Source: a bacterium
GTDB lineage: Bacteria; UBA8248
Length of the DNA: 64,000 nucleotides
Assembly (NCBI GenBank): GCA_963692865.2
Contig: OY843592.1
Span: 192,001-256,000, forward strand
Reading direction: 5' to 3'
Part shown: positions 1 through 30,292 of the stretch, in pieces
How positions within the stretch are numbered: the stretch's first letter is position 1
Layout of the letters: the number at the start of each line of letters is the position of its first letter
The notes under the pieces: model-generated
Database searches by the model: none
What the model was told of the DNA's origin: nothing
The model's input: only the letters and a program-made list of their open reading frames with translations
Made by a program: the position numbers and the translations under genes

Positions 1-2225
1 ACGCCCTGCAAATCCCGCCACGCGGCCGCAGCCTGCGCCAGCGGCTCGGCGCCGGCCGCTTCGAACACCGCCGCAGCGCTCGGCGCCGGGTCGTCGAGGC
101 AGCTTCCGCCGCGCGACAACTGCAGGTAGCGCGCGGCCTTCTCGACGTCGTTCAGCCCGCCGCGCATCCGGGCGTACGCGGACACGTCCGCTTCGGCGGG
201 GTCTTCCGTCCGCTCGCTCAAGCGGGCGAGCAAGGACTCGTTCGCGCCGCATTCGGCCAGTATCTCGCGCCGCGCCTCCTCGAAGCGGCCGGCGATATCG
301 GAACCTTCATACTCGAACGCGCAGCGCGCCCTGGTGAGGAGGGGGACTTCGCCCGGAGCCGGATTTCCGAAACGCCCGGCCAGTTCTGAAAGCGGCAAAG
401 CCTGAATGGAATTCGAGCCGGGCGGGACCGGGGAGAACAGCAGACTGTCCTTTGCCAGGTCGGCCAGGGCCTCCTGGAAACTCAAGCACATTTGCTCATT
501 CTTGCCGGACTGCCGGCCGTCGTGGAGGATCAGCATTTCAATTCCAACGCCGGGATATGCTTCTCTACTTGCCAGATCGCCCAGCAAAACGGCGGCGACG
601 CCACCCACGCTCAGCATCCCGAAGCGGTCGACGTAATCCGCGACCACGGAGGCGAGCACGGTCGAAATCGATGCTTCGGCGAGATTCGAGAGCGCCGTTC
701 TCGCTTCCGCCGGTAGCAGGTTCCCGCGCACCACGTGCATACTGATCTGAAACGCCTTGTCGTTCGACCAGTTTCGCACGATTTCGGCGGTTTCCCTCGA
801 ATCGGCCACCGGCAATTCGGCGACAAGCTCCTTCATTTCCTGAACGCCCATTTCGTACGTCCAGTAAACCCTCGCGAGCCCGCGCCGCGCAATCGATTCG
901 TATTCATCATCCGGGCCGAACCCTTTCGGGAGGTCGAGATCGAGGAATTCCTGATCCTGCAGGTTATCGAGAAGTTCCGGGTTCCGTTCAATACATTTCG
1001 CAAGCCGAGGGGCGGCGCCGAAGATTTCGAGTATCGCGTCGAAGGCGTCGGGCCGCGCCGCGGCGATCGGACTGTCGTAGGGGCTCCAGTCGTCGATCTC
1101 CGGGTAGAAATGCTCGCGCCACTGGTCCACCAGCGGGTCCATCTTCTCGAACCAGCGCTTGGGCCGCAGCACGATGTTCATCATATCGGCGTAGGTTCCC
1201 GGCAGTTCCGGCGACTCGTCGAGGCCGCTGACCTGCAGCAGGGGATACTGGCGGGAAGCCACCGCGTGATGATCCGCATGACGCTGCATGTTGAAAAACA
1301 TCCAGTTGCTGAACTTCCAGTCGGCGCTCCAGGAATGGCGCGGCATCGCCTTCTCCCAGCGGCCGTTGTCCAGGCGGACCCGGCGCAGGCCGTAGTGCTG
1401 AAAGTAGTTGCTCATCTTCATCGAAAAGACGCAGGACAGGCCGAGGAAGACGAAGACCGGAACGGCCCAGATCCCGCCCATCCAGAAAACCAGTCCGCAC
1501 CAGAACGCGACGCCTACCGCGTAGCGCCAGAACGGATTGTCGTAATGCCACACGGGCAGACGGCGCCGCGTCAGGCGTTCTATGGCGACTTCCCAGGAAT
1601 GGACGAGGTTGCTGGCAACTTCCTTCGGGAAATATTTCCAGAAACTCTCCCCCTTCGGAGCGGACCCCACGTCATACGGCGTGCCGACCAGGGCATGGTG
1701 AATATAGACGTGTTCCGTGGCGTACTGCGGATAGGAGACGGAGGCGAGCAGGAATTCGCCGACCCGGCGTTCCCAGGTCGTGCGCCGATGAATCATTTCA
1801 TGGCCGACGACGAATACGGCTTGCGCTTCCATCGTCAATATGATCGCCAGGAGCGCGCCTTCCCAGATGGAGAATTGATCCGCCGCCAGGATTTGCCACA
1901 TGCCGAAAACGAGCGTCGGCGGCCACAGAAACGACCACGACCAGACCGGCAGGTTGTGCCAGAAGAGGCGGTGTTCCGGCGTATTCGAAGGGTCCATGTT
2001 TTGTCCGTCCCGACCCAGCGCCCGATCAAGATACCCCGCCAAACTCATGAAGACGAGCGGCGGCAACAACCACCAGCCTCCATAGAGCGCGCCGAGAAGA
2101 ATCAACGGAAAAACGGCCAACGGCAGATAATGCGGAAGAGCGGTCAGAATGGACGGCTCGATACGCCGAGTGGCCTCAGCGCCGCCTGGGCCGGAGCCAC
2201 CACTTGCAACCGGACTCTGTGGCAT
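1..2225 (-). CDS. AlkB-like membrane di-iron monooxygenase/desaturase fused to a degenerate GlnE-like (adenylyltransferase) C-terminal domain; 3' end runs off the window
   Basis: Translated by hand from ATG at 2225 (RBS GAGGAG); open to position 1. Hydrophobic N-terminus with His boxes HEMIH, EHVYIHH, NYFQHYG, MQRHADHHA. C-terminal part has VAAVLLGDLASRE..IEMLILHDG, LTRAR and RGGLNDVEKAARYLQL, resembling GlnE. Confidence 0.85.
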   Translation of the reverse strand, partial: MPQSPVASGGSGPGGAEATRRIEPSILTALPHYLPLAVFPLILLGALYGGWWLLPPLVFMSLAGYLDRALGRDGQNMDPSNTPEHRLFWHNLPVWSWSFLWPPTLVFGMWQILAADQFSIWEGALLAIILTMEAQAVFVVGHEMIHRRTTWERRVGEFLLASVSYPQYATEHVYIHHALVGTPYDVGSAPKGESFWKYFPKEVASNLVHSWEVAIERLTRRRLPVWHYDNPFWRYAVGVAFWCGLVFWMGGIWAVPVFVFLGLSCVFSMKMSNYFQHYGLRRVRLDNGRWEKAMPRHSWSADWKFSNWMFFNMQRHADHHAVASRQYPLLQVSGLDESPELPGTYADMMNIVLRPKRWFEKMDPLVDQWREHFYPEIDDWSPYDSPIAAARPDAFDAILEIFGAAPRLAKCIERNPELLDNLQDQEFLDLDLPKGFGPDDEYESIARRGLARVYWTYEMGVQEMKELVAELPVADSRETAEIVRNWSNDKAFQISMHVVRGNLLPAEARTALSNLAEASISTVLASVVADYVDRFGMLSVGGVAAVLLGDLASREAYPGVGIEMLILHDGRQSGKNEQMCLSFQEALADLAKDSLLFSPVPPGSNSIQALPLSELAGRFGNPAPGEVPLLTRARCAFEYEGSDIAGRFEEARREILAECGANESLLARLSERTEDPAEADVSAYARMRGGLNDVEKAARYLQLSRGGSCLDDPAPSAAAVFEAAGAEPLAQAAAAWRDLQG

Positions 2226-2305
2226 GTCAGCTCCTCAACGGTAAGCAGAATTGAACCCTTGGGCCGGGGCTATTTTATCCCCGAATTCCTTGACCTGCAA
2301 GGATT

Positions 2306-3619
2306 TCAGGACTGCAAGACGGCGAGGAGACGCACGAGGGCTTCGATACAAAACGCAGTGGTCACGGATTCGGAGCCATGTCCTATCTGTCCGAATGCGC
2401 CCCACTTCAGCGTTTGATCTCCGAACGCGAGAAGTTCCGGCCAGCTGCCGTCCTCGTGCTGCGAACCCGTGAACCTTTCCACCCGGCGTTTCGCGTCGAC
2501 CCCGTCGAGGCGCCCGGCAAGATGAAGCGCCGAGACGGCCTGAGCCGTTTGAAGGATGTTGCCGAACCCCCCCTCGTCGTCCTGTAAGTCCAGGATGCGA
2601 GCCGCAAATACCGGGCGCAGCCGGTCGAGGGCGGGCCGCGCGCGGACCATGGCGCGGGCGGTTGCATAGCAGATCGCGGCCTCGTCGGGATACCATTTGG
2701 AGGAGCCCTCGAGTTTGCCTTCGGTTATCAAGGCTTCCAGCCATCGTTGGGCATCCCTGGTTTCAGGATGGTCGCCGAGATAGGCGATGACGTTCGCATT
2801 GACTACGGGGTCGGCCTCGATGCGAAAGCGCGACACGACGTCGGGTTCGTCGTCCTCCAGAACCCAGGTCATGAAACGGCCTTCCTCGTCGCGGTTCGCC
2901 AGTATCCGCGGAACGTTCCTCCCCAGCAGAATCCAGGGGTGAGTCCCGATCACGAGTGAACACAGCGCGGTGCTGTCGAGATCCCGGGGCAGGTGCCGGT
3001 AGTAGCGCCACAATCCGGGATATTCGATGGTGTCGACGAGATACGCCCTGGTCGCGGCGCAGATGGCCCTGGCGCGCGCTTCCCCGCAGCATTCCAGGGC
3101 AAGGGCGCAGAAAGCCGATATGAAGGGAGGTTTTTCGAAATGCCGTGGTATGTCCGGATTGCCTACGTTGAACCGGATGCAGCGCCAGGCGCCGTTCTCG
3201 TCTATGGTGGATTCCAGGAAATCGAGACCGCGGCGGATGCTTTCTCTCCCCGCATTTACGAATGCTTCCGTGGCGGCGTTCTTCGGGACTCTCTCCCCTC
3301 GAGGCGCGGGCGGACGAAGGGGCGGCGCCGGAGCGTGCATGGTCTTGCGAAGAAACTCGATAGATTCCGCACCGGTTTTCGCCTCCTCCCGTTCCGCCCT
3401 GGTGAATTTGCTGCGAGGCGGAAGGACGACGTGCGTCGATTCATAGGTTTCTTCGTGGACGTGAATCTCATGGCCTTCGGCCATCGTCACGCCGAATTCC
3501 TCTTCGATGGTCTCTTCGGGTTTGGCGAGAAGACGTTCGCGAAAGTCGTGGTCGTCGCCGGCTCGCGATACGAGGAAATCGGCCAGGCCAAAGGGTTTCT
3601 TCATCGATGTCCGCTCCAT
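2306..3619 (-). CDS. NHLP (nitrile hydratase-like) leader domain fused to a class II terpene cyclase beta/prenyltransferase-like alpha-barrel domain
   Basis: N-terminus LVSRAGDDHDFRERLLAKPEETIEEEFG...IHVHEET...HVVLPP matches an NHLP leader. C-terminus has PRDLDSTAL, DPVVNANV, QHEDGSW (QW-like) and GSESVTTAFCIEAL. Confidence 0.8.
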   Translation of the reverse strand: MERTSMKKPFGLADFLVSRAGDDHDFRERLLAKPEETIEEEFGVTMAEGHEIHVHEETYESTHVVLPPRSKFTRAEREEAKTGAESIEFLRKTMHAPAPPLRPPAPRGERVPKNAATEAFVNAGRESIRRGLDFLESTIDENGAWRCIRFNVGNPDIPRHFEKPPFISAFCALALECCGEARARAICAATRAYLVDTIEYPGLWRYYRHLPRDLDSTALCSLVIGTHPWILLGRNVPRILANRDEEGRFMTWVLEDDEPDVVSRFRIEADPVVNANVIAYLGDHPETRDAQRWLEALITEGKLEGSSKWYPDEAAICYATARAMVRARPALDRLRPVFAARILDLQDDEGGFGNILQTAQAVSALHLAGRLDGVDAKRRVERFTGSQHEDGSWPELLAFGDQTLKWGAFGQIGHGSESVTTAFCIEALVRLLAVLQS

Positions 3620-4100: not shown

Positions 4101-7040
4101 TCAGGCGATTTGCCTTTTGATCAATTCCTTGAATACCCCGTCGACCTCTTTCAATTCCTCGAAGGAACCGCTTTGTACGACTTTACCGGCTTGCAGCACG
4201 TAGATGCGGTCGGCCTGTTCCAGCGTGGACAGGCGGTGGGCGATGACGAGGCGGGTGGAAGTCAGGGCGGCAAGATTCCGCATTACCCTGGCCTGGCTTT
4301 CGTTATCCAGCCAGTTCGTCGCCTCGTCCAACAGCATGATTCGCGGGCTGCCAATCACCGAGCGGGCAATCGTGATGCGCTGACTCTCGCCGCCCGAGAG
4401 GACGGACCCGCTGGCGCCCACCATGGTCATCATGCCCATGGGCATGTCCTTGATTTGGGCTTCGACTTCGGCGGTCCGGGCCGCCGACCATACTTCCTCA
4501 ACCTCCACCGCGTCATGGTGACTGACCAGATTGTCCCAGAGATCATGCGGATGGAGTCCGACTGATTGCGGCACCGCGCCGATTTTCCGGCGCACCTGTT
4601 TCAGATTCAGGTGCCTCAGGTCGCGTCCGTCGTAATACACCGCACCGGCGGTCGGCCAGTCGATACCGAGCGCGAGCCGGAACAGGGTGCTCTTGCCAGC
4701 GCCGGACTCACCGGCAATCGCGACGAATTCGCCGGGACGGGCTTGAATCGTGACGTCGTCGAGAATCAACGGACCGTCGGGATCGTAGCGGAAGGAAATG
4801 CGGTCGAACAGTATTTCACCGCCCAGGTATTCAACCGGCTCTCCTTCCGTCACGGTTTCAGGAACGGCGGAGAGCAGCGGGCGCAACTGCCCGAACGCCG
4901 GCCGCATGGCGGCAACGGCGCCGAAGGACTCGCCGAGCCGGGCGACGGCGGACTGAAAAACGATAAAGACCGTGTAAACGACGAGAAAATCGCCGACCGG
5001 AAGGTTTCGGTCTCCCGCCACCGCGAAAAGCAGTACCCCGCCGGCAAGAAAGGGAAGCGCGGCGCCGAATGCCCGCGAATGCCCCTCGAGCGCGCCCAGT
5101 TCGAGCTCCGCGCGTTTCTGCTCGCGATAATCTCTCGCCCAGATGGCGTAAGCCGACCCTTCCGCATTATCCATCCGCAGCTTGGGGATGCCTCCCACGA
5201 TCTGGAACAGTCGACCGGCTACGCGGCGCGCTGCGCCGATCATCCGTCCATAAGGTGAAACTTGGCGCAACCCGAGGACGATGGCGACCAGTAGCGAAGC
5301 CAGGCTGAAGACGAGGGTGATGAGGCCGAGGGTGGCGTCATAGAAAAAAATGACGCCAAAAACCGGAAGCAGAAATATGATCGACACGAAGCTGTTGGCG
5401 ATGACTCCCCGCAAGCCGTCGCGAAGATTCTGGAACGTCATTCCCGACATCGCCAGATCGCCGGCTGGATGGCGGTGCAGAATGCCTGGCGGAAGGCGCA
5501 TGAGACGATCCCAGAAGGCGGCTTCGACCCGGGATGCCGAGCGCCCCTCGAGCCGCATCATCGCCGTGCTTTGAAGCATGTGCAGCAGTGCGCCGAGCAG
5601 GCCGAACGCCGCTACCGCCACGGCAACGGCATAGAGCGCTCCTGCGCTTCCGCCCGCCGATATTTCATTCGCAACGAACCCGAGCGCGAGCGCCGGCAGC
5701 AGTTTGATCATACCGCCGAGAAGCCCGGCGATGACCAGCCGCGCCAAATCCGCGGCCGACCCGTGCAGGGCGATTTTCAGCAGATCCGCCGGTTCCACTT
5801 CCCTGGACGGCAACGGCCGATAAAACACCCATGCTTCCCCCCCCAGCGCGCCCGCGCGTTCCGCCGTAACCCGGAGGCTGCGCTTGCTGACCGGATCGAC
5901 TTCCCGGTACCGCCCGAACTTTCCCGGCAGCAGCGCCACGGGCCTGCCGTCCTCGGCGCGGAATGCCAGCATCGCGTTGCTGTCGCCGCGCCACCAGTCG
6001 CCCTCGGCCTTGAATCGCACGCGCCGGGCGCGCAAGTCTGACGCATCGAGAATGTCGAGGAGGCTGACCGGCGTATCGGAAAGTCCCGAGCGCGCCGGTA
6101 TTTTGAAATCGATTCCTTCACGGCGGCCGATGAGTTGCAGGGCATCCGCCAGCGCCGTCTCCTCGATACCGGCGTCCCGGTCAACCGGAAGGTCATAGAT
6201 GTTGAAGAGACGCTGCCGCGCGGCTTTTTCGGCCTTGCGGCGACTGGTTGTCTGCGCGCGTTCGAGATTGACGTCATCGACCACGACCAGTCGGCGGTTC
6301 AGGCGCTCCAGGGAGAAAGCAAGCGCGTGAAAAGAGGCGAGCGCCGGCAGCAGCATGCCTTGCTCGGCCAGGGCTTCGGTAGATTCGCCCGTCAGCGTCG
6401 CCTCGTCGAACAAGCTGAGCCAGCTTGTGCGCGTCAGCGGAATCACGGCTTCGCGCGGGTCGCCCGCCTCCTCAAGTTCCGCCGGGTCGATAATGCCCAT
6501 GAACAGGCTTGCGCCGAGCGGCGGTTCGGATATCCACACCACGCCGCGCCGTACGGATAGCGTAGAAGGGGCCAGAGTCTGCGTCAGACCGGGTTCGGCC
6601 AGCGCGGTCGGACGTGGAAGGGGGTTTGCGAAACGCGACAGTGTTTCCGTAATGGCTGTCAGCCAGGTATCGGTCTGTTCCGCCAGTTCCGCCGGATGAA
6701 CCCGGGACAACAGGGAAGCCGGCAGACGTTTCAAAATGGCGCCCTGCAGTCCTTTGGCGATAATACTGAGCGTATTGCCTTCGTCGTCGTCTCGTTGGTC
6801 CGGCGCGACACCCGGAAGCAACCAGCCCGACTCCCGGCGCAGCAGATGCTGCGGCGCCGCCTGCTCCACCCCGTCCTTGAATTCGACCAGGAACAGGTTG
6901 ACGGCGCCCTGATCGATGAACCAGACGCTATCCGGATCATCGAGCCTGACCGGCAGGTTGCCGGCGCAGGGCACGGACTCGCCGAAGCGGTCGGCGAGTT
7001 CGGCTATGGACGCGTATTCCGGCTTTGTATGCCGCATCAT
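4101..7040 (-). CDS. NHLP bacteriocin-system ABC transporter, permease/ATP-binding subunit with N-terminal cNMP-binding-like domain
   Basis: Walker A GESGAGKS, signature LSGGESQR, LLDEAT, six-TM region, degenerate C39-like segment GDWWRGD...PVALLP; overlaps the upstream ABC gene (ATGA). Confidence 0.9.
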   Translation of the reverse strand: MMRHTKPEYASIAELADRFGESVPCAGNLPVRLDDPDSVWFIDQGAVNLFLVEFKDGVEQAAPQHLLRRESGWLLPGVAPDQRDDDEGNTLSIIAKGLQGAILKRLPASLLSRVHPAELAEQTDTWLTAITETLSRFANPLPRPTALAEPGLTQTLAPSTLSVRRGVVWISEPPLGASLFMGIIDPAELEEAGDPREAVIPLTRTSWLSLFDEATLTGESTEALAEQGMLLPALASFHALAFSLERLNRRLVVVDDVNLERAQTTSRRKAEKAARQRLFNIYDLPVDRDAGIEETALADALQLIGRREGIDFKIPARSGLSDTPVSLLDILDASDLRARRVRFKAEGDWWRGDSNAMLAFRAEDGRPVALLPGKFGRYREVDPVSKRSLRVTAERAGALGGEAWVFYRPLPSREVEPADLLKIALHGSAADLARLVIAGLLGGMIKLLPALALGFVANEISAGGSAGALYAVAVAVAAFGLLGALLHMLQSTAMMRLEGRSASRVEAAFWDRLMRLPPGILHRHPAGDLAMSGMTFQNLRDGLRGVIANSFVSIIFLLPVFGVIFFYDATLGLITLVFSLASLLVAIVLGLRQVSPYGRMIGAARRVAGRLFQIVGGIPKLRMDNAEGSAYAIWARDYREQKRAELELGALEGHSRAFGAALPFLAGGVLLFAVAGDRNLPVGDFLVVYTVFIVFQSAVARLGESFGAVAAMRPAFGQLRPLLSAVPETVTEGEPVEYLGGEILFDRISFRYDPDGPLILDDVTIQARPGEFVAIAGESGAGKSTLFRLALGIDWPTAGAVYYDGRDLRHLNLKQVRRKIGAVPQSVGLHPHDLWDNLVSHHDAVEVEEVWSAARTAEVEAQIKDMPMGMMTMVGASGSVLSGGESQRITIARSVIGSPRIMLLDEATNWLDNESQARVMRNLAALTSTRLVIAHRLSTLEQADRIYVLQAGKVVQSGSFEELKEVDGVFKELIKRQIA

Positions 7041-9247
7041 CCCGACTCGACCAGCTTGTAATACGCGCCGTCCCGATCCGCGATCAACTCCTCGTGCGCG
7101 CCGCGCTGCACCGTGACGCCTTTGTCGAGCACGATGATTTCATCACAGTCCCGCACGGTGCTCAGCCTGTGCGCGACGAGCAGGCAGGTGACGCCGCGAC
7201 GCCGCAGGGCGTCATCGACATCTTCTTCCGTCACGGCATCGAGTGCGCTGGTGGCCTCGTCCAGGATGAGGACTGTCGGATTGCCCACCAACGCCCGAGC
7301 GATTTCCAGGCGTTGCCGCTGGCCCCCGCTGAAATTCGCCCCGCCCTCTTCGACGAGGGTCGAATATCCCTGTGATCTGAGCAGGATTTCGTCATGGATC
7401 CGGGCGTCTCGCGCCGCGGCGAAGAGGACTTCATCCGGAATGGCCGGGTTCCAAAGCGTGACATTGTCGCGCACGGACGCGGTAAAGAGCACGATCTCCT
7501 GATCCACCATGGAGATGGACTGCCGCAGCACTTCTTCCGGGATATGATTCCGCAGATGGCCGTCAAACAGGATTTCGCCCTCCCAGGGCTGATAGACACC
7601 CGCAACCAGACGCGCCAGGGTCGACTTGCCGGAACCGCTGGGACCGACCACGGCAACGCGCTGCCCCGGCTTGATCACGAGGTTGAAGTCCTTTATCAAA
7701 GGCGGCCGGCTCTTGTTGAAACCGAAGGTGACGTTTCGCAGTTCGAGTTGGCCTGCGAGTTGGAGCCGGCCGTTGAACGTGGGGATTGACTCCGATTCCG
7801 GACTTCTGCGCCTGAAGGCGGGGTCTTCATCGGTTGTGGAGATGTCATCGAGTCGCTGCAAATCGGTTTTCAGCGCCTGACGGTTTTCGGCGAACTCCAA
7901 AAAGCGCTTGACGGGCGCCAGAAACATCTCCGCCAGGATGTAGAACCCGACCAGCGTCCCCAGGGTCATTTCTCCCGTCAAGACGAAACCGCCTCCGACC
8001 CCGAGAATCGCCGCACTTCGGAGCGCTTCAACCAGCCCCGGAAGCGAGGCATTGACGGATCCCAGTTCGAAATAGAGTTGGCGCGCGCGCAGTTCACGCG
8101 CCTGTTGACCACTCCAGCGCGAAAAAAACCGGTCGTCCGCTCCCGTCATACGCAGATTGCCCGCATGACTCAACATCTGCATGCCGAGGCCAATCAGCAA
8201 TCCCTGCTCGCGCCTCATCGCCTGGCTTCGAACAGCCCGATGGGCGTTGAGAAACTGGGCCAATATCCCGTGCAGAAAGGCCAGCAAAAGCACAATCAGC
8301 GTGAGCAGGACATCGTAGGCGAACATCGCAATGAGCAGCACCATGCTCATCGCCATTTCGATAACGAGCACCAGAAACTGATCCGCCAGATTCCTGGCGA
8401 CTCTGTCGATGGACGAGACCCGATCGGTCAGGTCGCCCGCCAGCCTGTGTTCAAAAAACTCCACCGGCAACCGCAGCAGCCGGGAAATGCCGCGACTGTA
8501 GCCAATCACCGATACCCGTACTGCGAGCCGCTTGAGGAACCGGTGCTTGAGCAGGGAGAGGACGTATACCAGGGCGCCGCCGCCAAGCAGGGCGGTCACC
8601 AATCCGCCCCAGGATCCGTGTTTTTCCATGGCATCGTCGACGAAAACACCGAGAGACGCGGGAATAATCAACGTCAACAACGTCAACATGAGTCCGCAGG
8701 CAATCACCCCGGCAAGCAGATTCCATGACCCGTCGAGCAAGGCGCCCAATTGCCGGAACAAGTCGGGCTGTTCGCCCCCGGGCCTGAAATCGGCGCCGCG
8801 CTCGAAGCGAAGCGCAATGCCGCTGTAGCCCTTGATGAACTCTTCGGCGGAAATCCTCCGCCGCCCCGTGGAAGGATCGTTGAGATAAAAATGACGGCCG
8901 TCAAATCCATCGAGGACGACGAAATGGCTGAATTGCCAGAACAAAATCAAAGGCAGTTGCAGCTTTTTCAGTTGATCGGCGCGTACGCTGAGACCGCTGC
9001 ATTCGAGACCATAGTGCCTGGAGGCGCGCAGGATGCTTGCGGCGCTGCTGCCGTCCCGGCTCACCTCGCATTTTTCGCGCAATTCGGCAAGCGGCGCCCA
9101 TCGCCCGAAGTAGGCCAGTACGATGCCGAGGCAGGCGGCGCCGCATTCCGACGCATGCATCTGCAACACAACCGGCGTGGTTATCTTCCGTTTCGATATT
9201 TCCGAAGAGTCCTTATCCCGGCCACCTTCGGGGGCGCGCGGCGGCAT
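7037..9247 (-). CDS. NHLP bacteriocin export ABC transporter with C39 peptidase
   Basis: QMHASECGAACL (catalytic Cys), HFVV, DP; GPSGSGKS, FSGGQRQR, LDEAT. Confidence 0.93.
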   Translation of the reverse strand: MPPRAPEGGRDKDSSEISKRKITTPVVLQMHASECGAACLGIVLAYFGRWAPLAELREKCEVSRDGSSAASILRASRHYGLECSGLSVRADQLKKLQLPLILFWQFSHFVVLDGFDGRHFYLNDPSTGRRRISAEEFIKGYSGIALRFERGADFRPGGEQPDLFRQLGALLDGSWNLLAGVIACGLMLTLLTLIIPASLGVFVDDAMEKHGSWGGLVTALLGGGALVYVLSLLKHRFLKRLAVRVSVIGYSRGISRLLRLPVEFFEHRLAGDLTDRVSSIDRVARNLADQFLVLVIEMAMSMVLLIAMFAYDVLLTLIVLLLAFLHGILAQFLNAHRAVRSQAMRREQGLLIGLGMQMLSHAGNLRMTGADDRFFSRWSGQQARELRARQLYFELGSVNASLPGLVEALRSAAILGVGGGFVLTGEMTLGTLVGFYILAEMFLAPVKRFLEFAENRQALKTDLQRLDDISTTDEDPAFRRRSPESESIPTFNGRLQLAGQLELRNVTFGFNKSRPPLIKDFNLVIKPGQRVAVVGPSGSGKSTLARLVAGVYQPWEGEILFDGHLRNHIPEEVLRQSISMVDQEIVLFTASVRDNVTLWNPAIPDEVLFAAARDARIHDEILLRSQGYSTLVEEGGANFSGGQRQRLEIARALVGNPTVLILDEATSALDAVTEEDVDDALRRRGVTCLLVAHRLSTVRDCDEIIVLDKGVTVQRGAHEELIADRDGAYYKLVESG

Positions 9248-9248
9248 C

Positions 9249-9800
9249 TTATGACCGCCTCATTCGAAACAGCGCAATCGGGGATTGTCTGCCGAGCTCG
9301 ATGACAATTCGGCATTTCCTGCCCGCAAGGGTATTCAAATCAACGCTTTCTTCGAGCGCGATATCGACGCGGCGCAAGGACACCGGCGCCGCGGACTCAA
9401 ACGCCGCCGCCCCCCCGGAAAAGGGCACGGCGGAAATCGCCCTGACTTCTCCACGGAGCGCGACTGTTTCTCCATCCCCCGCATCCGACTCAATCACCAC
9501 CGGCATCCCGGCCTCGATACGTGGAGCAATACCGCTCTCGACCCAGACGAGGGCCTGCGCAGTCCGGCCGCCCTCTGGCGGGTTTTCGCGCTTCTCGACC
9601 AGTACGCCGTCCACCGCGAGGCTGCGGGCCACGCCGCCGAAGAAAAGCCAGGCCGAGAGGATGCACAGCAAAAGAGCGATTGCGGCGACAAGCAGACGCT
9701 CCCGAGGCGTGGAAACCGTCAGCAGCCGGTCGAGTTGTTCGCGTTCTTCCTTTGCTTCGGCGACAGTATCATGAAATGAGCCAAACGGATTGTTGAACAC
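9249..9800 (-). CDS. Short NHLP-system secretion protein (HlyD-like, lacking the coiled coil)
   Basis: EQLDRLLTVSTPRE followed by a TM helix, typical of the NHLP HlyD N-terminus; C-terminal QSPIALF; only 183 aa. Confidence 0.75.
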   Translation of the reverse strand: MFNNPFGSFHDTVAEAKEEREQLDRLLTVSTPRERLLVAAIALLLCILSAWLFFGGVARSLAVDGVLVEKRENPPEGGRTAQALVWVESGIAPRIEAGMPVVIESDAGDGETVALRGEVRAISAVPFSGGAAAFESAAPVSLRRVDIALEESVDLNTLAGRKCRIVIELGRQSPIALFRMRRS

Positions 9801-10347: not shown

Positions 10348-11625
10348 CTAACAGCCCAGCCCCTGGGACATCTGGCAATAACTGGAGAGAGGAAAGAACG
10401 CCAACGTCCGATGCCAGTCGGCTTTGTCGATGAGCGACTGGTTCATCAGTTCGATCATTTCCTCGAATTTGCGGAGCGCGTCGCAACCCACCGCTTCGGG
10501 GTCCGCCACCTTTCGATGCTGCGGCCAGGCGTGGTCGCGAGCGTATCGCCAGAATCCGCTGTCGTACTTCGAACCGCAGGAATAATGCCAACCGACGAAC
10601 AAGCCGAAGCAGAGCATGGTATTGGTGAGGTATCGATTGACCACAGGAGCGTCGCGCTCGAGGTGTTCTACCGGACGATTAAGGCGCGTATGGAGAGCCA
10701 TCCCGACCTCCACCTGTACGGATACGATCGCCGTTGCCTCGAGGGGTTCCATGAAGGCGGCTGCGTTGCCGATGCGGGCCACCGCGCCATCGTACATGTG
10801 ACGATGGATAAAATTGGGGAACGGAATGACGGCGCGTTGCTCGAACTCCGGGACGCCGTCGGTTTCAAGCACCGCGTCAAAATCCGATTCGACCTCGGCG
10901 AGGCCGGATACGTCGCGGTTGAAGACGTACCCGTAGGTTGTGTGTGTTGCAAGCGGAATAACGACTATCCAACCATGCGGACGCGCAACCGCCCGGGTAT
11001 AGGTAGGTTGCAGAACCAGCCCATCCCGCTCTTCTTTGACGATCGCCGGGCAGCGGCGGATGACGGCCGTATTGGTGGGGATGAAAGAGAGGTCGATGTG
11101 CCGGTCGGGATCCAGTTCTCCGGGAAACCCTTTGGCGTCGAAGACCAGGTCGTAGCGTTCCGGCGGCAGCCCCTCGAACTCCACTCGAGCGCCGCCCTCC
11201 ACCCTGGTGATATCGAGCACTTTCGCGTCGATGTGGCGCGCGCGCGTGCTTTCGTGCAGCAGGTCCGCCATCAAGTCGACGGACAGGTGATAGGCGTAGG
11301 ACACCTGTTGCGGCGTGAAATAGTGGGTGAAGTCCTGATTGCGCCGACCCCATCCCTCGAACACCACGCCGTACTTGCGAGTTCCATTCAAGCGCTGCTG
11401 GACGGTTTCATGGGGAAGATTCGTAAGTTGACACAATTCCTGAACAAGGCTCGGCCAACAGCCTTCGCCCACTCCGAGGGCCGGGATGCGCGAGTCATAT
11501 ATGTGGTGCAGTTCGTGGTCGCTCTCGGATAGAAGACGAGTGACGTGGGCGGCCGCAAGGGACCCTGCGGTTCCCCGCCCGACAACCGCGATCTTCCGTA
11601 AAGATTCAGCGCCCGGCCGTATCAT
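10348..11625 (-). CDS. Flavin-dependent halogenase, tryptophan halogenase family (candidate peptidyl halogenase)
   Basis: GRGTAG FAD motif, GVGEG, catalytic Lys in GTRKYGVVFEGW, GWIVVIPL (WxWxIP variant), FMEPLEAT. Confidence 0.88.
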   Translation of the reverse strand: MIRPGAESLRKIAVVGRGTAGSLAAAHVTRLLSESDHELHHIYDSRIPALGVGEGCWPSLVQELCQLTNLPHETVQQRLNGTRKYGVVFEGWGRRNQDFTHYFTPQQVSYAYHLSVDLMADLLHESTRARHIDAKVLDITRVEGGARVEFEGLPPERYDLVFDAKGFPGELDPDRHIDLSFIPTNTAVIRRCPAIVKEERDGLVLQPTYTRAVARPHGWIVVIPLATHTTYGYVFNRDVSGLAEVESDFDAVLETDGVPEFEQRAVIPFPNFIHRHMYDGAVARIGNAAAFMEPLEATAIVSVQVEVGMALHTRLNRPVEHLERDAPVVNRYLTNTMLCFGLFVGWHYSCGSKYDSGFWRYARDHAWPQHRKVADPEAVGCDALRKFEEMIELMNQSLIDKADWHRTLAFFPLSSYCQMSQGLGC

Positions 11626-12225: not shown

Positions 12226-12784
12226 AGCTTTCTCAAGAACCCTGAATGCGCCGCCCGCTTCCATTCAGCCCGTACGCCGGCGCCGGTCGCAACTCGCTCA
12301 TTCGTCACCTTTGGGTTTGAGCCGGTATTTTTGAACTGTCGTTACACGGCGCCGAAGCATGGCCATAACCGAGCAGTATCGAACCGGATTCTTGAGATGA
12401 GCGCGAACCGGCCCCACCTGCACGCGGAGAAGTCATTTTGAACCCGCTTGCGGTTTGACCACGGATTTTGAAAGGCCGGTTTCCAATCGATTCCAGGGAA
12501 CGAGTGTATGAAAACAACATCCACATGTGCGGGGAATTTCACAATGGAAAGAACGGACTCGCGTTTCTGAATTCCTGAACAATTCGATAAATCATTGTCA
12601 TGAACCCCGTGGCCGCGCAATAGTGCGATTGGCCACGCATATATAAGATAACTTATTGTTTATAATACCATATTTCTGTTATTCTCTACTCCGATTCCCC
12701 TTGCGTTTTCGTCATACATATGCTTGAATACCCTCCAGTTTGATGCCGTATATATGCGATTTGATTACAGACTTAGGAGGGAAG

Positions 12785-13963
12785 ATGCCGAAGCGAAGCG
12801 ATCTGAAACTCACCAAGCGCACCGTCGACGCGCTGGAGGTCGGCGGGAAGGACGCGGTTTTCTGGGACCGGGAGCTGGCGGGCTTCGGGCTGCGCGTCCA
12901 CGCTACGGGACGGAAGACCTACGTTGTGCAATCAAGAGGGCCATCGGGGCCGAAGCGCGTGACGCTCGGCCGCCACGGGGAGATGGCCGTCGATGAAGCC
13001 AGGAAAGGGGCCGCCCTCGTTATCGACCGCATCAAGCGCGGCGAGGATTTGAGCGCTGCGGCGCCTAAGGCGGAGACCACCGTGGCGGGACTCGCCGGGC
13101 GCTTCATGCGCACCCACGTGGAGAAACACCTGAAACCCGCCAGCGTCGCCGCGTACCGCACGGTGCTCGACAGACACGTCCTGCCCGCCCTGGGCGGTAT
13201 GGGACTGGAAGAAGTGGGCGGGGCGCAAGTCACGGAACTTCATCACGGCCTTCGCGATACGCCGGTCCTGGCGAACCGTGCGGTGCACCTGCTCTCGCGG
13301 ATGTACACCCTCGCGGAAGCGTGGGAACTTGTCCCGCCCGGGCGGAACCCCTGCAGTGCGGTGCGCCGCTTCAGGACGCGCAAGCGCGAGCGGTTCCTGG
13401 CGCCTGAGGAATACCGGCGCCTGGGCCGTGCACTCAAACAGGCCGAGGCCGAAGACGAAATATGGCCGCCCGCGGTCGCGGCGGTCCGGCTGCTCGTCCT
13501 GACCGGGTGCCGCAGGGGCGAGATACTCAACCTCAGGTGGGACGACGTGGACCGCACGGCGGGCGATCTGAGGCTTCGGGACGCCAAGGCGGGTCCCCGG
13601 ATGGTCCCCCTGACGAGGCCCGTGCTCGGGGTGCTCGACGCCATCCCCCGTACTGAAGACAACCCCTGGGTGATCGCGGGCCAGAGGGCCGGGAGGCCCC
13701 TCACGGGCCTGCACCACTACTGGCGGCCTGTCCGGGAGCGGGCGGGGCTCGCGGACGTAAGGCTTCACGACTTGAGGCACTCCTACGCATCGAGGGCGCT
13801 TGCGCTGGGCGAGAGCCTCTACACCATCGGCAAATTGCTCGGCCACGCGAGCGTGGCGACGAGCGCGCGCTACGCGCACCTGATGCGAAAGGCCGAGAGG
13901 GAGGCGGCGGTGAGGGTGGGCGGGAGCATCGGCGCCCACGTCGCGAACGGGAGGATTGTGTAA
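12785..13963 (+). CDS. Tyrosine recombinase/integrase with arm-type DNA-binding N-terminus (copy 1)
   Basis: AGGAGG RBS before ATG 12785; FWDRELAGFGLRV arm domain; GCRRGE, HDLRH, LLGH, RY catalytic motifs. Confidence 0.93.
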   Translation: MPKRSDLKLTKRTVDALEVGGKDAVFWDRELAGFGLRVHATGRKTYVVQSRGPSGPKRVTLGRHGEMAVDEARKGAALVIDRIKRGEDLSAAAPKAETTVAGLAGRFMRTHVEKHLKPASVAAYRTVLDRHVLPALGGMGLEEVGGAQVTELHHGLRDTPVLANRAVHLLSRMYTLAEAWELVPPGRNPCSAVRRFRTRKRERFLAPEEYRRLGRALKQAEAEDEIWPPAVAAVRLLVLTGCRRGEILNLRWDDVDRTAGDLRLRDAKAGPRMVPLTRPVLGVLDAIPRTEDNPWVIAGQRAGRPLTGLHHYWRPVRERAGLADVRLHDLRHSYASRALALGESLYTIGKLLGHASVATSARYAHLMRKAEREAAVRVGGSIGAHVANGRIV

Positions 13964-13965
13964 GG

Positions 13966-15135
13966 ATGGCGAAACCTGAACACGGGACACTGTCGAACCG
14001 AGCGGTCGGGAAGCTCGCGGTGGAGAAAGACACGGTGTACTGGGACCGGGAACTCACGGGCTTCGGCGTGAGGGTGTATCCCACCGGCTCGAAAGTCTAC
14101 GTCGCCCAGGCCCGGGGTCCCGAGGGTCCCAGGAGGGTGGCGGTGGGCCGCCACGGGGTGATCAACGCGGATGAGGCGAGGAAGCGCGCCGCCCACATCA
14201 TCGCGAGGATCAAGGCGGGCGAGGAGGCTATCCCCAAGCCGATGAAGCCAGTGGGAGGCCCCACGGTGACCGAACTCTGCGCGCGCTATCTTGCCGAATA
14301 CGTCTCGGTGCGGTGCAAGCCGGGCACAGCCACGCTCTACCGCTCGGTGATCGACCGCCACCTCCTGCCCGCCCTGGGCAGGACGCCGCTGGCCGCGCTT
14401 TCCCGCGCGCGGGTGGCGGAATTCCATGAAAGCCTGTACGAGACGCCCGCGGTGGCAAACACGGCGCTCCGCGTCCTGTCCGCGATGTACGAGCAGGCCC
14501 GGGGCTGGGGACTGCTGCCCGAAGGAACATCAAATCCCTGCCGAGCCCAGGTGAAATACCCCGAGCGCAGGCGCGAGCGGTTCCTGACGGATTCGGAGTT
14601 CATCCGCCTGGGAGAGGTCCTCGACGAGGCTGAGGCCCGGGGCGGCGCCTCCGCATCCGCGGTGGCGGCTATCCGGCTGCTCGCGCTGACGGGGTGCCGC
14701 AGGAGCGAGATACTCAAACTGCGCCGGGAAGACGTGGCGCTCGAAGCGGGCGAGCTGAGACTCCCCGATTCCAAGACGGGCGCGCGGGCCGTCGCGCTGC
14801 CGCCGCAGGCGGTCGAGCTCCTCGGAAGCCTCCTTGACGCCCACGACGGCCCCTGGGTCATCCCGGGCAGGAAGCCGGGGACGCGCCTTGCGAACGTCGA
14901 CGAGGCCTGGCGGGCGATCAGGAAGCGCGCGGGCCTCGAAGGCGTGAGGTTGCACGACCTGCGCCATTCCTACGCCTCGCGCGCCCTGGCGCTCGGTGAG
15001 CCGCTGCCCGTCATCGGGAAACTCCTGGGCCACAGCCGGCTGGAAACGACGGCGCGTTACGCGCACCTCGCGCGCGATACGGCGCAGGAGGCGGCCGAGC
15101 GGGTCGCGGAGAGCATCGCTGCGGATATACTTTAA
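13966..15135 (+). CDS. Tyrosine recombinase/integrase with arm-type DNA-binding N-terminus (copy 2)
   Basis: YWDRELTGFGVRV; GCRRSE, HDLRH, LLGH, RY; starts 2 bp after copy 1. Confidence 0.93.
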   Translation: MAKPEHGTLSNRAVGKLAVEKDTVYWDRELTGFGVRVYPTGSKVYVAQARGPEGPRRVAVGRHGVINADEARKRAAHIIARIKAGEEAIPKPMKPVGGPTVTELCARYLAEYVSVRCKPGTATLYRSVIDRHLLPALGRTPLAALSRARVAEFHESLYETPAVANTALRVLSAMYEQARGWGLLPEGTSNPCRAQVKYPERRRERFLTDSEFIRLGEVLDEAEARGGASASAVAAIRLLALTGCRRSEILKLRREDVALEAGELRLPDSKTGARAVALPPQAVELLGSLLDAHDGPWVIPGRKPGTRLANVDEAWRAIRKRAGLEGVRLHDLRHSYASRALALGEPLPVIGKLLGHSRLETTARYAHLARDTAQEAAERVAESIAADIL

Positions 15136-17094: not shown

Positions 17095-19932
17095 CTACAG
17101 TTCCATGCCCCGATCCGATCGGGTCTTCTCAATCACCGGCGTCCGCCTCTCCATTGCCTGCGTCGCCTCGTTCGGCTTCTCCGCCCCGATGCTCTCCGCC
17201 TTGCCCGCTCCTATCGCCTCGAGCGCCGCGACCCGCTCGCCCGTCGCGGCCTCCAATCGCTCACGCAGCGCCTTCGCGTCGTCGGTCACGAGTTCCGCCT
17301 TATCCCGGGCGCGGCTGATCTCGACGTAGAGCGTCTTCTGGTTGGTGAGGTCGGGGTGGTTGGCCTCCATGGCGGCGATGACGGTATCGACCGTCCGGCC
17401 CTGGAAGGCGTGGACGGTCGAGGCCCATGCGCGGTCGATATGGCGAAGCTGCGGAACGCCGGCGGCCATGACGATCGTGCGCCCGTCCTCGATGCGGAAG
17501 GTGACGCGGCCTTTCCTGATGCCCGTCACCTCGGCGGCCTGGCTGTTGACCAGGCCGAGTTCCCTGTCGTTCCGGGTCCAGCGGACTCTGTCGCCTGCGC
17601 GCAGCTCTATCCGCTCGACCTTGTAGACCTCGACACCTCCGGTACGCGCCGCGAGGCGGCCCGGCTCCCAGCGAACCTCCCCTCCATGCATGCCCTGCAG
17701 GATGACCGCGCCCTTCGCGTGATCCACGCCCTTCACGCGCAGCTCGTCTCCCTTCTCGACGCCCAGGCGCTTGTAGCGGCGTTCGAAGGCGACGACGTCG
17801 CCGGGCGAATAGTTCGCGGCGAGCGATTTCTCGGGGTTCGTGTAGCCGCGCGAGACGAGGCGATTCGTGCGGAAGGCCGGGCCGCAGACGGCGCCCTCCC
17901 GGACCAGGCGCTCGCGGACGATGGCGTTGATCTTCTCGCGGATCGCGTGGCTCGGCGCCATGAGCCCCGCCCGTTCGCGCGCCTCGGGCGGGAGCGCGAG
18001 CCAGCGCGCGGCGGCGGCGCCCGCGAGGTTGTCGGCCTTCACTTCGGCCACGTTGGAACCGAGCTTCTCGAAGGCGCGCCTTACGTCGCCCGCGAGGGTG
18101 GCCTCGACGGCGGCTTTCAGGTCCGGTTCGCGCTGGCGCATGATCTCGCTCATGGTGACCGTCTTCATGCCCGCGGCCTGCAGCTGCGCGAAGGGTTTCC
18201 CGGCGTCGACGGCGTCGAGCTGTTTCTCATCGCCCACCAGAACGACCCGCGGCATGCGCAGTACCTCCGAGATGCGGAGCAGTTCGCGCATCTCGCGCGT
18301 GGAAGCCAGGGATCCCTCGTCCACGACGAGAGCGGTCCTGCGCCAGGCGGAGCGCATCTTCTTCTCGCCCCCTCTCGTGAGGCGGCCTTGGGCTACCCCT
18401 GCGTTTCGCGCGAGGAAGCGCTGGAGCGTCTCGCTCTCGATCCCCGCTTCCGCTTCGAGCGTCCTTGCGGCGGAGGCCGAAGGCGCCAGGCCCCGGACCT
18501 CGTAGCCGCGTTTCTCGAACAGGGCGCGGGCGCGCTTGAGCATCTTCGTCTTGCCGGTGCCCGCATAGCCCTGCACGCCCACCACGCGATCAGGGTCCGC
18601 GAGGATCAGCTTGACCGCCTCTCTTTGGCCCTGCGTCAGCGGTCCCCTGTGCAGATGCCGATCCACCATCCAGCCCCGCATGGCGGGCGCGCCCCGTCCG
18701 CGGCCGGCCTCCACGAGGGCGATGGTCTCTCGCTCCGCCGCCGCGGCCTTCTCCGTCGTGAGCATGTCCTTCATTCCCGGCAGGTCCGCCGCGTGCAGGA
18801 CGCCCGATTTTTCGAGTCTCGCCACTTCTCGTTCGGCGCCCGCCATCGACACCGCGCCGGGCCGCCAGGCGAGCGCGCCCGCGAGCAGGGCCGCGCGGTC
18901 GAAGACCGCCTCTCGTTCCGCGAGGTGCGCCACGGCCCAGTCCACGGCCTCCCGGGCGGGTTCGACTTCCGCCGCGCTCAGACCTGCGTCGCGGGACATG
19001 GCGCGCCTCTCCATCGCCTGCGCCTTGAGGGCGGCGGCGTCGAAGCCCAGCTCCTTCGCCTGCTTCTCCCATACGGCCATGAGCGCCGACTTGTCGGCTT
19101 CCCGCTTGGGGTCCCTCGTCATGAGCGTCACCCGCTGGGCCGCGCGCTGGTTCCCGGCCGTCTTGCCGAGTCCGCGTTCTTCCATCGCCTTCTCGATCTC
19201 CGCCCGCCTGCTCGAGAACGCCTCGATCACCTCGCGCGATACGCCCTCGATCTCGAAGCGCCCGTCCGCGTGGGTCTTCTCGACCCGGTAGCCGAACCCC
19301 TCGAGGCCGCGGGCGAGTTCGGTCCGGTATATCGCGCCGATCAGCATCTTCTGGGCGTAGAGCTTCTCGTTGGACATCGTGCGCCACTTGCCATCGGCGC
19401 CACGCACCATGTTGGCGATGACCGCGTGCGTGTGGAGCAGGGGGTCCATGTTGCGCGAGGTGTTGTGCCTGAAAGTCGCGACGACGCTCTTCTGGTCGCC
19501 GACACGGATCATGCGCCCGGTCCCGGGCTCGCTCATCCTGGTCTCTGCGGCGTTGCGCTCCACCCAGTCCAGGGTGCCCGACACGGCCACCTCGTGGGCC
19601 CACATCGCGCGCCCGTCGCCCCCGAGGTAGGTCAGCAGCGAGACGGACTTGGGCGCCGAGAGGGTGAGGTCGCGGCCGGGACGGTGGTGGATGACGCCGT
19701 CCTTGCCCCTCTTCCCGAGCCTTTGTCCCGAGCCGTCCGGCACCACGCCCTCGAGCACGGAGCGCAAGACTTCCGGATCCACCGGACCCGACAGCCCCAG
19801 GTCCTCGGCGCCCCTGCCGCGCCAGGTGCTCGACTCCCGGTGGTGCGGGGAGTCCTTCGCGTAGTAGTCGTCGCGCTCGAAGTAGGCGACGCACTGCGCC
19901 GGCGCGGCGACGGCGCCGATCGATGCGACCAT
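17095..19932 (-). CDS. MOBF (TrwC/TraI-like) conjugative relaxase-helicase
   Basis: YFERDDYY N-terminal tyrosines, DLTLSAPKSVS, HNTSR..DPLLHTH (HUH), helicase GYAGTGKT, VVDE, TVHAFQG. Confidence 0.93.
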   Translation of the reverse strand: MVASIGAVAAPAQCVAYFERDDYYAKDSPHHRESSTWRGRGAEDLGLSGPVDPEVLRSVLEGVVPDGSGQRLGKRGKDGVIHHRPGRDLTLSAPKSVSLLTYLGGDGRAMWAHEVAVSGTLDWVERNAAETRMSEPGTGRMIRVGDQKSVVATFRHNTSRNMDPLLHTHAVIANMVRGADGKWRTMSNEKLYAQKMLIGAIYRTELARGLEGFGYRVEKTHADGRFEIEGVSREVIEAFSSRRAEIEKAMEERGLGKTAGNQRAAQRVTLMTRDPKREADKSALMAVWEKQAKELGFDAAALKAQAMERRAMSRDAGLSAAEVEPAREAVDWAVAHLAEREAVFDRAALLAGALAWRPGAVSMAGAEREVARLEKSGVLHAADLPGMKDMLTTEKAAAAERETIALVEAGRGRGAPAMRGWMVDRHLHRGPLTQGQREAVKLILADPDRVVGVQGYAGTGKTKMLKRARALFEKRGYEVRGLAPSASAARTLEAEAGIESETLQRFLARNAGVAQGRLTRGGEKKMRSAWRRTALVVDEGSLASTREMRELLRISEVLRMPRVVLVGDEKQLDAVDAGKPFAQLQAAGMKTVTMSEIMRQREPDLKAAVEATLAGDVRRAFEKLGSNVAEVKADNLAGAAAARWLALPPEARERAGLMAPSHAIREKINAIVRERLVREGAVCGPAFRTNRLVSRGYTNPEKSLAANYSPGDVVAFERRYKRLGVEKGDELRVKGVDHAKGAVILQGMHGGEVRWEPGRLAARTGGVEVYKVERIELRAGDRVRWTRNDRELGLVNSQAAEVTGIRKGRVTFRIEDGRTIVMAAGVPQLRHIDRAWASTVHAFQGRTVDTVIAAMEANHPDLTNQKTLYVEISRARDKAELVTDDAKALRERLEAATGERVAALEAIGAGKAESIGAEKPNEATQAMERRTPVIEKTRSDRGMEL

Positions 19933-30131: not shown

Positions 30132-30292
30132 GAATGACACCTCACGCCCTTGATGAGAACATTGAACTACCGTCTAGCTGAGGTAGAACTGGCTCTAGAA
30201 CTAAATTCCAGAAATACTTCAATTGTGTTGTATTAAGCCTGCGATTTATATTCGCCTTAAATCTTACAAGCAGACCTAGCACAGGATTCTTT

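Follow-up and report, generated by a model that had tools for sequence, protein, structure and literature searches.

The fusion gene F0 and its domain layout

The window analysed here is a 64,000-nt stretch of bacterial DNA (GenBank assembly GCA_963692865.2, contig OY843592.1, positions 192,001 to 256,000 of the forward strand), and all coordinates below are positions within it. At its left edge, at 3..2225 on the minus strand, lies a gene, referred to here as F0, in which an AlkB-like di-iron oxygenase domain is fused to a GlnE-like domain. Judged from its sequence and from a structure model, F0 is read as encoding most of a two-domain inner-membrane protein of ~798 amino acids (aa), and it is very likely part of the published srp pathway for a peptide that is made by ribosomes and modified after translation (RiPP).

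The reading frame of F0 begins with an ATG and continues for 741 codons without a stop up to the window edge (window 3..2225, minus strand), unbroken between the two domains, as expected from the initial annotation, which had been made from the sequence and had claimed one open frame of more than 740 codons. F0 has the sequence GAGGAG 5 nt upstream of its ATG; a gap of 80 nt separates it from the preceding gene. Full-length relatives are 787-815 aa long, mostly 798 aa; because the window edge cuts the gene, ~57 C-terminal residues are missing from the window copy, corresponding to ~57 more codons past the edge. Long open reading frames on the opposite strand (e.g. 735..2417, plus strand) were rejected as high-GC artefacts, the gene caller based on GC content at third codon positions choosing the minus frame.

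Relatives of F0 were collected by a genome scan, in which 150 were found and the best 80 kept, with 61-91% identity; the motif counts given below refer to 81 sequences, i.e. those of the 80 related loci and the window copy. Both domains were covered by the tblastn match in 77/80 related loci, and in the remaining three (L073, L074 and L077) the match stops at residues 684, 684 and 646, respectively. Public records label these relatives only as 'fatty acid desaturase' or 'hypothetical protein'.

The junction between the two domains lies near nt 1106 (aa 373/374), inside the interval of about 1050-1120 in which it had initially been placed. The AlkB-type membrane di-iron domain occupies 1107..2153 (minus strand; aa 25-373), and the cytoplasmic module resembling GlnE adenylyltransferase occupies 3..1106 (minus strand; aa 374-741 in this copy, aa 374-798 in full-length relatives). 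Pfam assigned FA_desaturase to aa 121-329 (E=4e-26) and GlnE to aa 398-536 (E=1.9e-5), the latter with 24.6 bits and thus barely over the 24-bit cutoff. A profile of 30 F0 relatives, compared with the Protein Data Bank (PDB), matched the AlkB structures 8f6t (E=1.4e-52) and 8sbb (E=2.4e-43; 8f6t and 8sbb were recovered by fold as well) and the GlnE adenylylation domain 3k7d (E=6.8e-7). A first AlphaFold2 model, obtained from a shallow 30-row alignment, was poor (mean predicted local distance difference test, pLDDT, of 52) and was replaced by a full-length model based on a 77-row alignment, with a pLDDT of 87.8 and a predicted template modelling score (pTM) of 0.85. In Foldseek searches with this model, the template modelling (TM) score was 0.72 for 8f6t (root mean square deviation 3.2 Å) and 0.75 for 8sbb on the AlkB side, and on the GlnE side 0.65 for 1v4a (the N-terminal half of GlnE), 0.54 for 3k7d (the adenylyltransferase half) and 0.54 for the GlnE-fold AMPylase DrrA. 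Since Pfam, the PDB profile matches and the fold matches agree, we consider the identity of both domains confirmed, so that the description of the C-terminal region as GlnE-like, made at first from the letters of this one copy, holds.

Conservation is uneven along the protein. The mean pairwise identity is 0.82 in the AlkB-like domain, 0.79 in aa 374-535 (linker and helical part), 0.59 in the nucleotidyltransferase (NTase) core (aa 536-640) and 0.56 in the C-terminal helices.

The AlkB-type oxidase domain

The His boxes HEMIHRR (1782-1802), EHVYIHH (1695-1715) and QRHADHH (1266-1286), all on the minus strand and with verified coordinates, had been called intact for the window copy, and they are so across the family: each of the nine His ligands (H142, H146, H172, H176, H177, H277, H316, H319 and H320) is kept in 81/81 sequences, which implies a working metal site. 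The model supports a six-helix AlkB fold, with hydrophobic stretches at aa 25-60, 112-142 and 235-272.

At 1386..1409 (minus strand) the motif NYxEHYG of AlkB reads NYFQHYGL, with Gln276 in place of the Glu. This reading had already been given by the initial annotation, which missed that the replaced Glu is an Fe2 ligand and a proposed proton donor. Precisely, according to the accessible text of PMC10113152, Glu271 of FtAlkB coordinates Fe2, lies 3.2 Å from the terminal methyl of the substrate and is the suggested proton source for the second oxygen atom, so the Glu-to-Gln change falls in the first coordination sphere. A second paper on an AlkB structure places, in the part available, the same Glu near an iron, with a water in the equivalent place of the desaturase SCD1 (PMC10110569). 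Gln precedes the HYG histidine in 81/81 srp-type sequences, and both solved AlkB sequences have Glu there. Among 12 more divergent AlkB-like/GlnE-like fusions, this position of NYxEHYG is Gln in nine and Glu in three. As the defining Glu is replaced, we class F0 as a variant within the AlkB family.

Regarding the electron supply, the six Arg residues with which FtAlkB docks rubredoxin were mapped by hand onto F0: five of them align with basic residues (R148, R153, R220, R289 and K292) and the position of the sixth is Y174. Pfam found no rubredoxin, ferredoxin or reductase domain within the F0 protein itself.

The GlnE-like module

The degenerate nucleotidyltransferase motif of the module, LGDLASREAYPGVGIEM (534..584, minus strand), keeps the glycine-rich loop, and its DxD dyad reads G-I-E. 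The erosion of this motif, first noticed in the window copy, is a property of the whole family. At the first Asp position stand A, G, P, S or R, with an acidic residue in just 5/81 sequences; the second is D or E in 63/81, and at least 17/81 have N, R, H or K there. True GlnE proteins keep SDLDL, in 7/7 full sequences aligned and also in the GlnE fragment P0158. Since the metal-binding Asp dyad is lost, we read the module as non-catalytic, and expect this reading to be right. The loop G-D-L-A-S-R-E...P-G, counterpart of G-K-L-G-G-R-E in GlnE, is nearly invariant in srp-type modules, and 5/12 divergent fusions retain an acidic pair [DE]-x-[DE]. Of 50 invariant residues in the C-terminal half, 43 fall in aa 374-535 and not at the former active site.

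Against the NCBIfam GlnE equivalog model the module scored 44.9 bits (cutoff 724), the match covering the region of the C-terminal adenylyltransferase half. When the C-terminal 425 residues were compared with 1.84 billion representatives, 477 matches were obtained at E<=1e-3. Genuine GlnE proteins (~1000 aa) were matched mainly in their C-terminal half, with E-values of ~1e-16 to 1e-11, and divergent AlkB-like/GlnE-like fusions (~800 aa) were matched with 30-49% identity to the query module. AcrB-type RND transporters of ~1520 aa (P0174 and P0185) also carry the degenerate module (24-31% identity), attached to their cytoplasmic C-terminus. The contigs that hold members of the RND-fusion cluster are 2.5-6.7 Mb long, and some members bear the names of proteins from gammaproteobacterial metagenome-assembled genomes (MAGs); otherwise the public names are absent or read 'efflux RND transporter permease subunit'. 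Where the first Asp would stand, four of five RND-fused or RND-fragment sequences have Pro and one has Arg; their second position is D or E. As far as sequence comparison goes, these RND fusions argue for a portable accessory role of the module on membrane proteins. P0122 and P0124 (~455 aa) look like stand-alone modules, and P0297 and P0298 (347 aa) like AlkB-like halves outside a fusion; all occur on long contigs and could be either true splits or frameshifted assemblies.

A complex prediction for the module (aa 374-798) with the precursor peptide SrpE, introduced below, gave no verdict, with scores of 0.00 and 0.00; having been run without controls, it counts neither way.

Conservation and gene order of the locus

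Gene order was derived from rough gene calls that were clustered across the window and the 80 loci, and the presence counts were re-checked independently by tblastn. A fixed order was found, with a halogenase, a short HlyD-like protein, an ABC exporter with a C39 peptidase domain, a second ABC exporter, a 434-aa protein that joins an NHLP-type leader to a toroid domain (NHLP/toroid protein), and F0. After F0 come a fused leader-binding/YcaO cyclodehydratase, a 373-aa protein (F4) and then, on the opposite strand, an NHLP precursor of 83 aa. In the 74 loci with at least 4 kb of downstream sequence, YcaO was present in 74, F4 in 74 and the SrpE-like precursor in 73. Where the upstream sequence reached at least 8.5 kb (64 loci), the NHLP/toroid protein was present in 63, both ABC exporters in 57, the short HlyD-like protein in 51 and the halogenase in 51. 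The recurrence of the fusion beside NHLP exporters, which had been proposed as a check of the initial annotation, was therefore observed in 57/64 loci.

The stop codon of F0 overlaps a start codon of YcaO by 4 nt in 39/68 loci, and the gap from YcaO to F4 is 9 nt in 61/68. The protein downstream of F0 matches Pfam YcaO with E=5e-92, as well as TIGR03882 and TIGR03604, and the precursor tail reads ...AGLCCCW in 66/73. F4 (L005:14759-15877, 373 aa) showed a protein-atlas similarity of 0.91 to clusters of Trp_DMAT/PTase_Orf2 (ABBA) prenyltransferases, to be taken as a lead only, and gave no match in Pfam, NCBIfam or PDB sequence searches. Among the conserved or recurrent neighbour families scanned, no match to a nitroreductase or SagB-type enzyme, i.e. 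a flavin mononucleotide (FMN)-dependent azoline dehydrogenase, was found.

The record titles of the 80 relatives carry at least eight phylum-level labels. They include Nitrospinota, Gemmatimonadota, Latescibacterota and Nitrospirales/Nitrospira, and further Alpha- and Gammaproteobacteria, Acidobacteria groups, Binatia, Thermodesulfobacteriota, Syntrophobacterales and 'Deltaproteobacteria'. In a FastTree phylogeny of the F0 protein, clades mostly track these labels, with Gemmatimonadota and Latescibacterota intermixed, and the window copy groups with Nitrospinota-labelled and unlabelled MAGs. Rampant recent gene transfer was rejected on the ground that F0 clades largely follow phylum labels; older transfers followed by vertical descent fit this pattern better than ongoing exchange.

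Some loci depart from the common order. In five Nitrospirales-labelled loci (L013, L015, L028, L030 and L065) and in L064, F0 is retained and no NHLP ABC exporter was found in the fetched sequence. In the five Nitrospirales-labelled loci the cluster is flanked by an RND pump together with a membrane-fusion protein and an outer-membrane factor, and this gene content suggests that the export route has been swapped there. A divergent Gammaproteobacteria-labelled clade (L072, L073 and L074) has a shorter fusion (681 aa in our own gene calls) and a second precursor ending in ...MCCCGI. A UbiA prenyltransferase (representative in L074) and an MpaB/Lcp-like oxygenase (representative in L072) belong to families each found in three loci. 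Just past the precursor gene in some loci, a family present in seven loci (F17; L013:16693-17943) encodes the alpha subunit of a Rieske-type ring-hydroxylating oxygenase; it is another candidate for an oxidative tailoring enzyme, and its Rieske centre is the sole iron-sulfur domain seen near the cluster.

Relation to the published srp cluster

The srp cluster is described as a sponge-derived RiPP cluster of the proteusin type and is credited to Nguyen et al. 2021 in the accessible parts of four later reports (PMC10858898, PMC10286304, PMC9426513 and bioRxiv 10.1101/2023.06.09.544420). According to the passages available, the precursor SrpE has the core LCCCW, the YcaO enzyme SrpC makes three thiazolines in it and SrpI brominates the C-terminal Trp (PMC10858898, PMC10286304), and the cluster, conserved among sponge microbiomes, is transcribed at high levels across phyla (PMC9426513; bioRxiv 10.1101/2023.06.09.544420). 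As far as their accessible text goes, the open srp papers characterise SrpE, SrpC and SrpI only and call the final product unknown or cryptic.

The window shares with srp the halogenase, both NHLP exporters and the protein with the NHLP leader, and the related loci have the YcaO enzyme and an LCCCW precursor whose core is identical to that of published SrpE. F0 is a core member of the published srp cluster that the open literature covered, short of the founding 2021 paper, does not describe, and this membership had been missed by the initial annotation. With YcaO as SrpC and the precursor as SrpE, the gene order suggests the name 'SrpB' for F0, a name that comes from gene order only. F0 is as conserved as the three srp proteins that have been studied.

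In the open srp literature covered, which leaves the founding 2021 paper outside, the passages seen tie no desaturase, alkane hydroxylase or oxygenase to srp. In the accessible text of PMC9426513, 'desaturase' occurs in the section on ether lipids only; no cluster map or gene table was found in the available supplementary text of PMC10858898, and no mention of srp in the parts consulted of a 2025 review (PMC12426817) or of a 2026 preprint. A search for the names SrpA to SrpI returned only papers on SrpI, SrpE and SrpC. Similarly, when literature joining RiPP, YcaO, NHLP and 'fatty acid desaturase' was sought, none of the matches listed contained that last term.

Neighbouring genes in the window

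Directly upstream of F0, at 2306..3619 on the minus strand, a 437-aa protein combines an NHLP-type leader with a toroid domain resembling terpene cyclases and prenyltransferases (Pfam, NCBIfam on the L005 homologue, and a PDB profile search). Its leader resembles that of the precursor, with 37% identity over 68 aa, and the matches to squalene-cyclase/prenyltransferase-beta repeats are weak. An NHLP leader on a protein of enzyme size is odd; it could serve for export or cleavage through the C39 ABC transporter, or the protein might compete for leader-binding sites.

The following genes, also on the minus strand, are a 979-aa permease/ATPase subunit of an NHLP bacteriocin export ABC transporter (4101..7040; Pfam, and TIGR03797 on the L005 homologue), a 736-aa NHLP export ABC transporter with a C39 peptidase domain (7037..9247; Pfam, and TIGR03796 on the L005 homologue), a short HlyD-like protein of 183 aa (9249..9800), which weakly matches NCBIfam TIGR03794 at only the N-terminus of the HlyD of NHLP systems, and a homologue of flavin-dependent Trp halogenases (10348..11625; Pfam Trp_halogenase, E=1.5e-43) that is the counterpart of SrpI. 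The 'HlyD' of this system is in general ~180-195 aa long and matches the first ~50 residues of a model of 421 positions; a form of 292 aa is found in L039. By tblastn, the SrpE precursor, YcaO and F4 had no match anywhere in the window. The precursor and YcaO are absent because the window ends inside the F0 gene, so that only the upstream half of the cluster is present.

This half-cluster is bordered by a mobile/defence island (window 12740-40776), with two tyrosine recombinases (12740-13963 and 13966-15135), a TrwC relaxase/helicase (17095-19932), a single-stranded DNA-binding protein (SSB; 22820-23266), a DUF3800 protein (29088-30140), a BglII-type restriction enzyme with methylase (33042-34567) and a TIR-domain protein (36466-36792), and additionally a YspA/SLOG protein and a trypsin-like peptidase. 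Beyond ~41 kb the genes look chromosomal (a hybrid kinase, ThiE, a ThiL-like protein and SerRS). No tRNA gene was found in the whole window.

Proposed function of F0

From genomic context and motif logic we propose, tentatively, that F0 acts in the membrane as an O2-dependent oxidase tailoring the srp peptide and carries a non-catalytic cytoplasmic module for scaffolding or docking. The parts of this proposal differ in strength: domain identities, motif states, synteny and gene coupling were observed, and the substrate, the chemistry and what the module does are inferred from them. F0 is likely to be an active oxidase, and it probably performs an oxidation step on the srp peptide; as to the substrate, we lean slightly towards a peptide derived from SrpE. 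Desaturase-type dehydrogenation is favoured over AlkB-type hydroxylation, because the catalytic Glu is missing and no FMN azoline dehydrogenase was found in the cluster, and the conversion of thiazoline to thiazole is the lead candidate; taken as the one specific chemistry of F0, thiazoline oxidation is unlikely. That the AlkB-fold enzyme oxidises the SrpE tail directly (from thiazoline to thiazole or at the C-terminal residue), a dead GlnE-type NTase having been recruited for docking of the leader or of a partner, is possible and rather doubtful.

In the mechanism that we envisage, YcaO, translationally coupled to F0, would turn the three Cys of the SrpE core LCCCW into thiazolines, and the brominase would modify the C-terminal Trp. 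The modified tail, very hydrophobic, would then partition to the membrane and enter a lateral substrate tunnel of the AlkB type, and the acidic soluble NHLP leader would remain cytoplasmic, in contact with or close to the GlnE-like module and the oxidase's basic face. The di-iron site would carry out the O2-dependent oxidation just before export through the neighbouring NHLP ABC transporters, with electrons supplied by a small acidic carrier presumably encoded elsewhere in the genome. The initial annotation had proposed that the module recruits a peptide substrate; this idea fits, as F0 belongs to a RiPP cluster, and the binding itself stays a prediction.

Several points weigh against this proposal. 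The contact of F0 with SrpE is a prediction from genomic context. The Glu-to-Gln change might cripple the activity rather than retune it, and since three of the 12 divergent fusions retain Glu, Gln is not obligatory for the fused architecture. As for electron donors, a regular expression for rubredoxin-like sequences, a crude pattern blind to ferredoxins, gave 0 matches in the 1.64 Mb that the loci span, and the neighbour families scanned included neither a ferredoxin nor a reductase; a donor may be encoded elsewhere in the genome. No enzyme of the AlkB family is known to us to use a peptide as substrate, a point at which no search was aimed. With the loop conserved and the acidic pair present in 5/12 divergent fusions, nucleotide binding or residual catalysis may persist in the module. 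The leads to prenylation (the atlas match of F4, the toroid domain upstream and the UbiA of L074) suggest a prenyl chain, a substrate more AlkB-like than a peptide. Finally, the founding srp paper may already give F0 a name or a role.

These prenylation leads can be developed into the main rival account, which concerns the substrate and in which F4 or another prenyltransferase puts a prenyl or alkyl appendage on modified SrpE and F0 hydroxylates or desaturates its terminal carbon in the membrane, the module again being non-catalytic. The AlkB fold and its lateral tunnel suit linear hydrophobic chains, according to the available text of PMC10113152, and AlkB-type enzymes have been applied in a pathway that starts from isoprenyl acetate, in the accessible part of PMC12171333. 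Besides, the nearest named atlas clusters of F4, at the score of 0.91, are the Trp_DMAT/PTase_Orf2 prenyltransferases, the upstream protein has its weak squalene-cyclase/prenyltransferase-beta repeats, and the UbiA prenyltransferase of L074 represents a family of three loci. However, with no Pfam, NCBIfam or PDB match for F4, its assignment as a prenyltransferase comes from the language-model lead and from nothing else, the open passages on srp mention no prenylation (PMC10858898, PMC10286304, bioRxiv 10.1101/2023.06.09.544420), and the loss of the catalytic Glu disfavours classical AlkB hydroxylation; we consider this account unlikely. Less likely again is that F0 is a membrane accessory, concerned with self-protective lipid remodelling or with the coupling or gating of export, whose module senses, e.g., ATP/ADP on membrane machines. 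The occurrence of the same module on RND efflux pumps, the glycine-rich nucleotide-binding loop kept despite the loss of the dyad, the proximity of F0 to the exporter genes and the failure to find an electron donor in the cluster would all be in line with it. Yet F0 sits between the NHLP/toroid and YcaO genes and is translationally coupled to YcaO, not to the exporters, and it is kept in the five Nitrospirales-labelled loci and in L064, in whose fetched sequence no NHLP ABC exporter was found; the nine invariant His, moreover, imply a working metal site.

The two further explanations concern the module. It could still be an enzyme and AMPylate the precursor peptide, the NHLP/toroid protein or the oxidase by means of the second acidic and other residues, and in fact its fold matches the GlnE halves and the AMPylase DrrA, the loop G-x-L-[AG]-[SG]-R-E is conserved, the second acidic residue is present in 63/81 sequences and some divergent fusions keep [DE]-x-[DE]. 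We hold this improbable, because an acidic first position in just 5/81 and N, R, H or K at the second in at least 17/81 contrast with the conservation of both Asp in 7/7 true GlnE aligned, and the NTase core is the least constrained region bar the C-terminal helices. The initial annotation had also suggested a link to nitrogen status, by which the module would couple oxidase activity to the glutamine synthetase (GS)/PII system. Homology to GlnE, and nothing further, speaks for it, whereas the neighbours scanned, both in the window and in the related loci, yielded no genes for GS, PII or GlnD, a single degenerate NTase module stands against the two active ones of GlnE, and the consistent context is a RiPP pathway, with the module also present on RND pumps; we regard such a link as highly implausible and have dropped it.

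If F0 is the missing oxidase that we propose, it would tell chemists which mass shifts to seek for srp, and it may help to explain why reconstitution with only YcaO and the halogenase gave no defined final product. The known scope of the AlkB family would widen if one of its members, in which an iron-ligating Glu has become Gln, had a substrate linked to a peptide. Direct action on the SrpE tail, with the dead module recruited for docking, would make F0 the first of a new class of enzymes for RiPP tailoring; it would also put a pseudo-nucleotidyltransferase to a new use and supply the missing chemistry of the widespread cryptic srp product.

Comparison with known systems

A parallel for the proposed step lies in the related mpr pathway, in which, according to the accessible text of PMC12455567, a separate FMN oxidase, MprD, serves the step from thiazoline to thiazole. 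The step hypothesised for F0 stands at the same point of the pathway, after the fused YcaO, and this assignment is a hypothesis only; MprD is a soluble flavoprotein, unrelated to F0 in family and cofactor, whereas F0 would be a membrane di-iron enzyme.

With FtAlkB (8f6t/8sbb), F0 shares 28-29% identity over ~357 columns, the same fold, the nine His in four motifs and, by the hand mapping given above, a basic patch on the cytoplasmic side. It differs in having Gln for the Fe2-ligating Glu and a GlnE-like module of 425 aa at the C-terminus; it is without a fused or neighbouring rubredoxin or reductase, and its context is a RiPP cluster and not alkane catabolism.

The module shares with GlnE its sequence homology, its fold (TM 0.54-0.65) and the loop G-x-L-[AG]-[SG]-R-E. 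In GlnE, however, two NTase halves stand in tandem (removase and transferase, ~950 aa), whereas F0 has a single module of ~425 aa, which is without the catalytic SDLDL dyad, is joined to a membrane enzyme and has no GS or PII genes found nearby. The RND/GlnE-like fusions likewise carry the module on a polytopic membrane protein, but there the partner is an AcrB-type pump and not an oxidase. For protein evolution, F0 would clearly illustrate the reuse of a dead enzyme domain as a portable cytoplasmic unit, joined to membrane proteins of two unrelated kinds.

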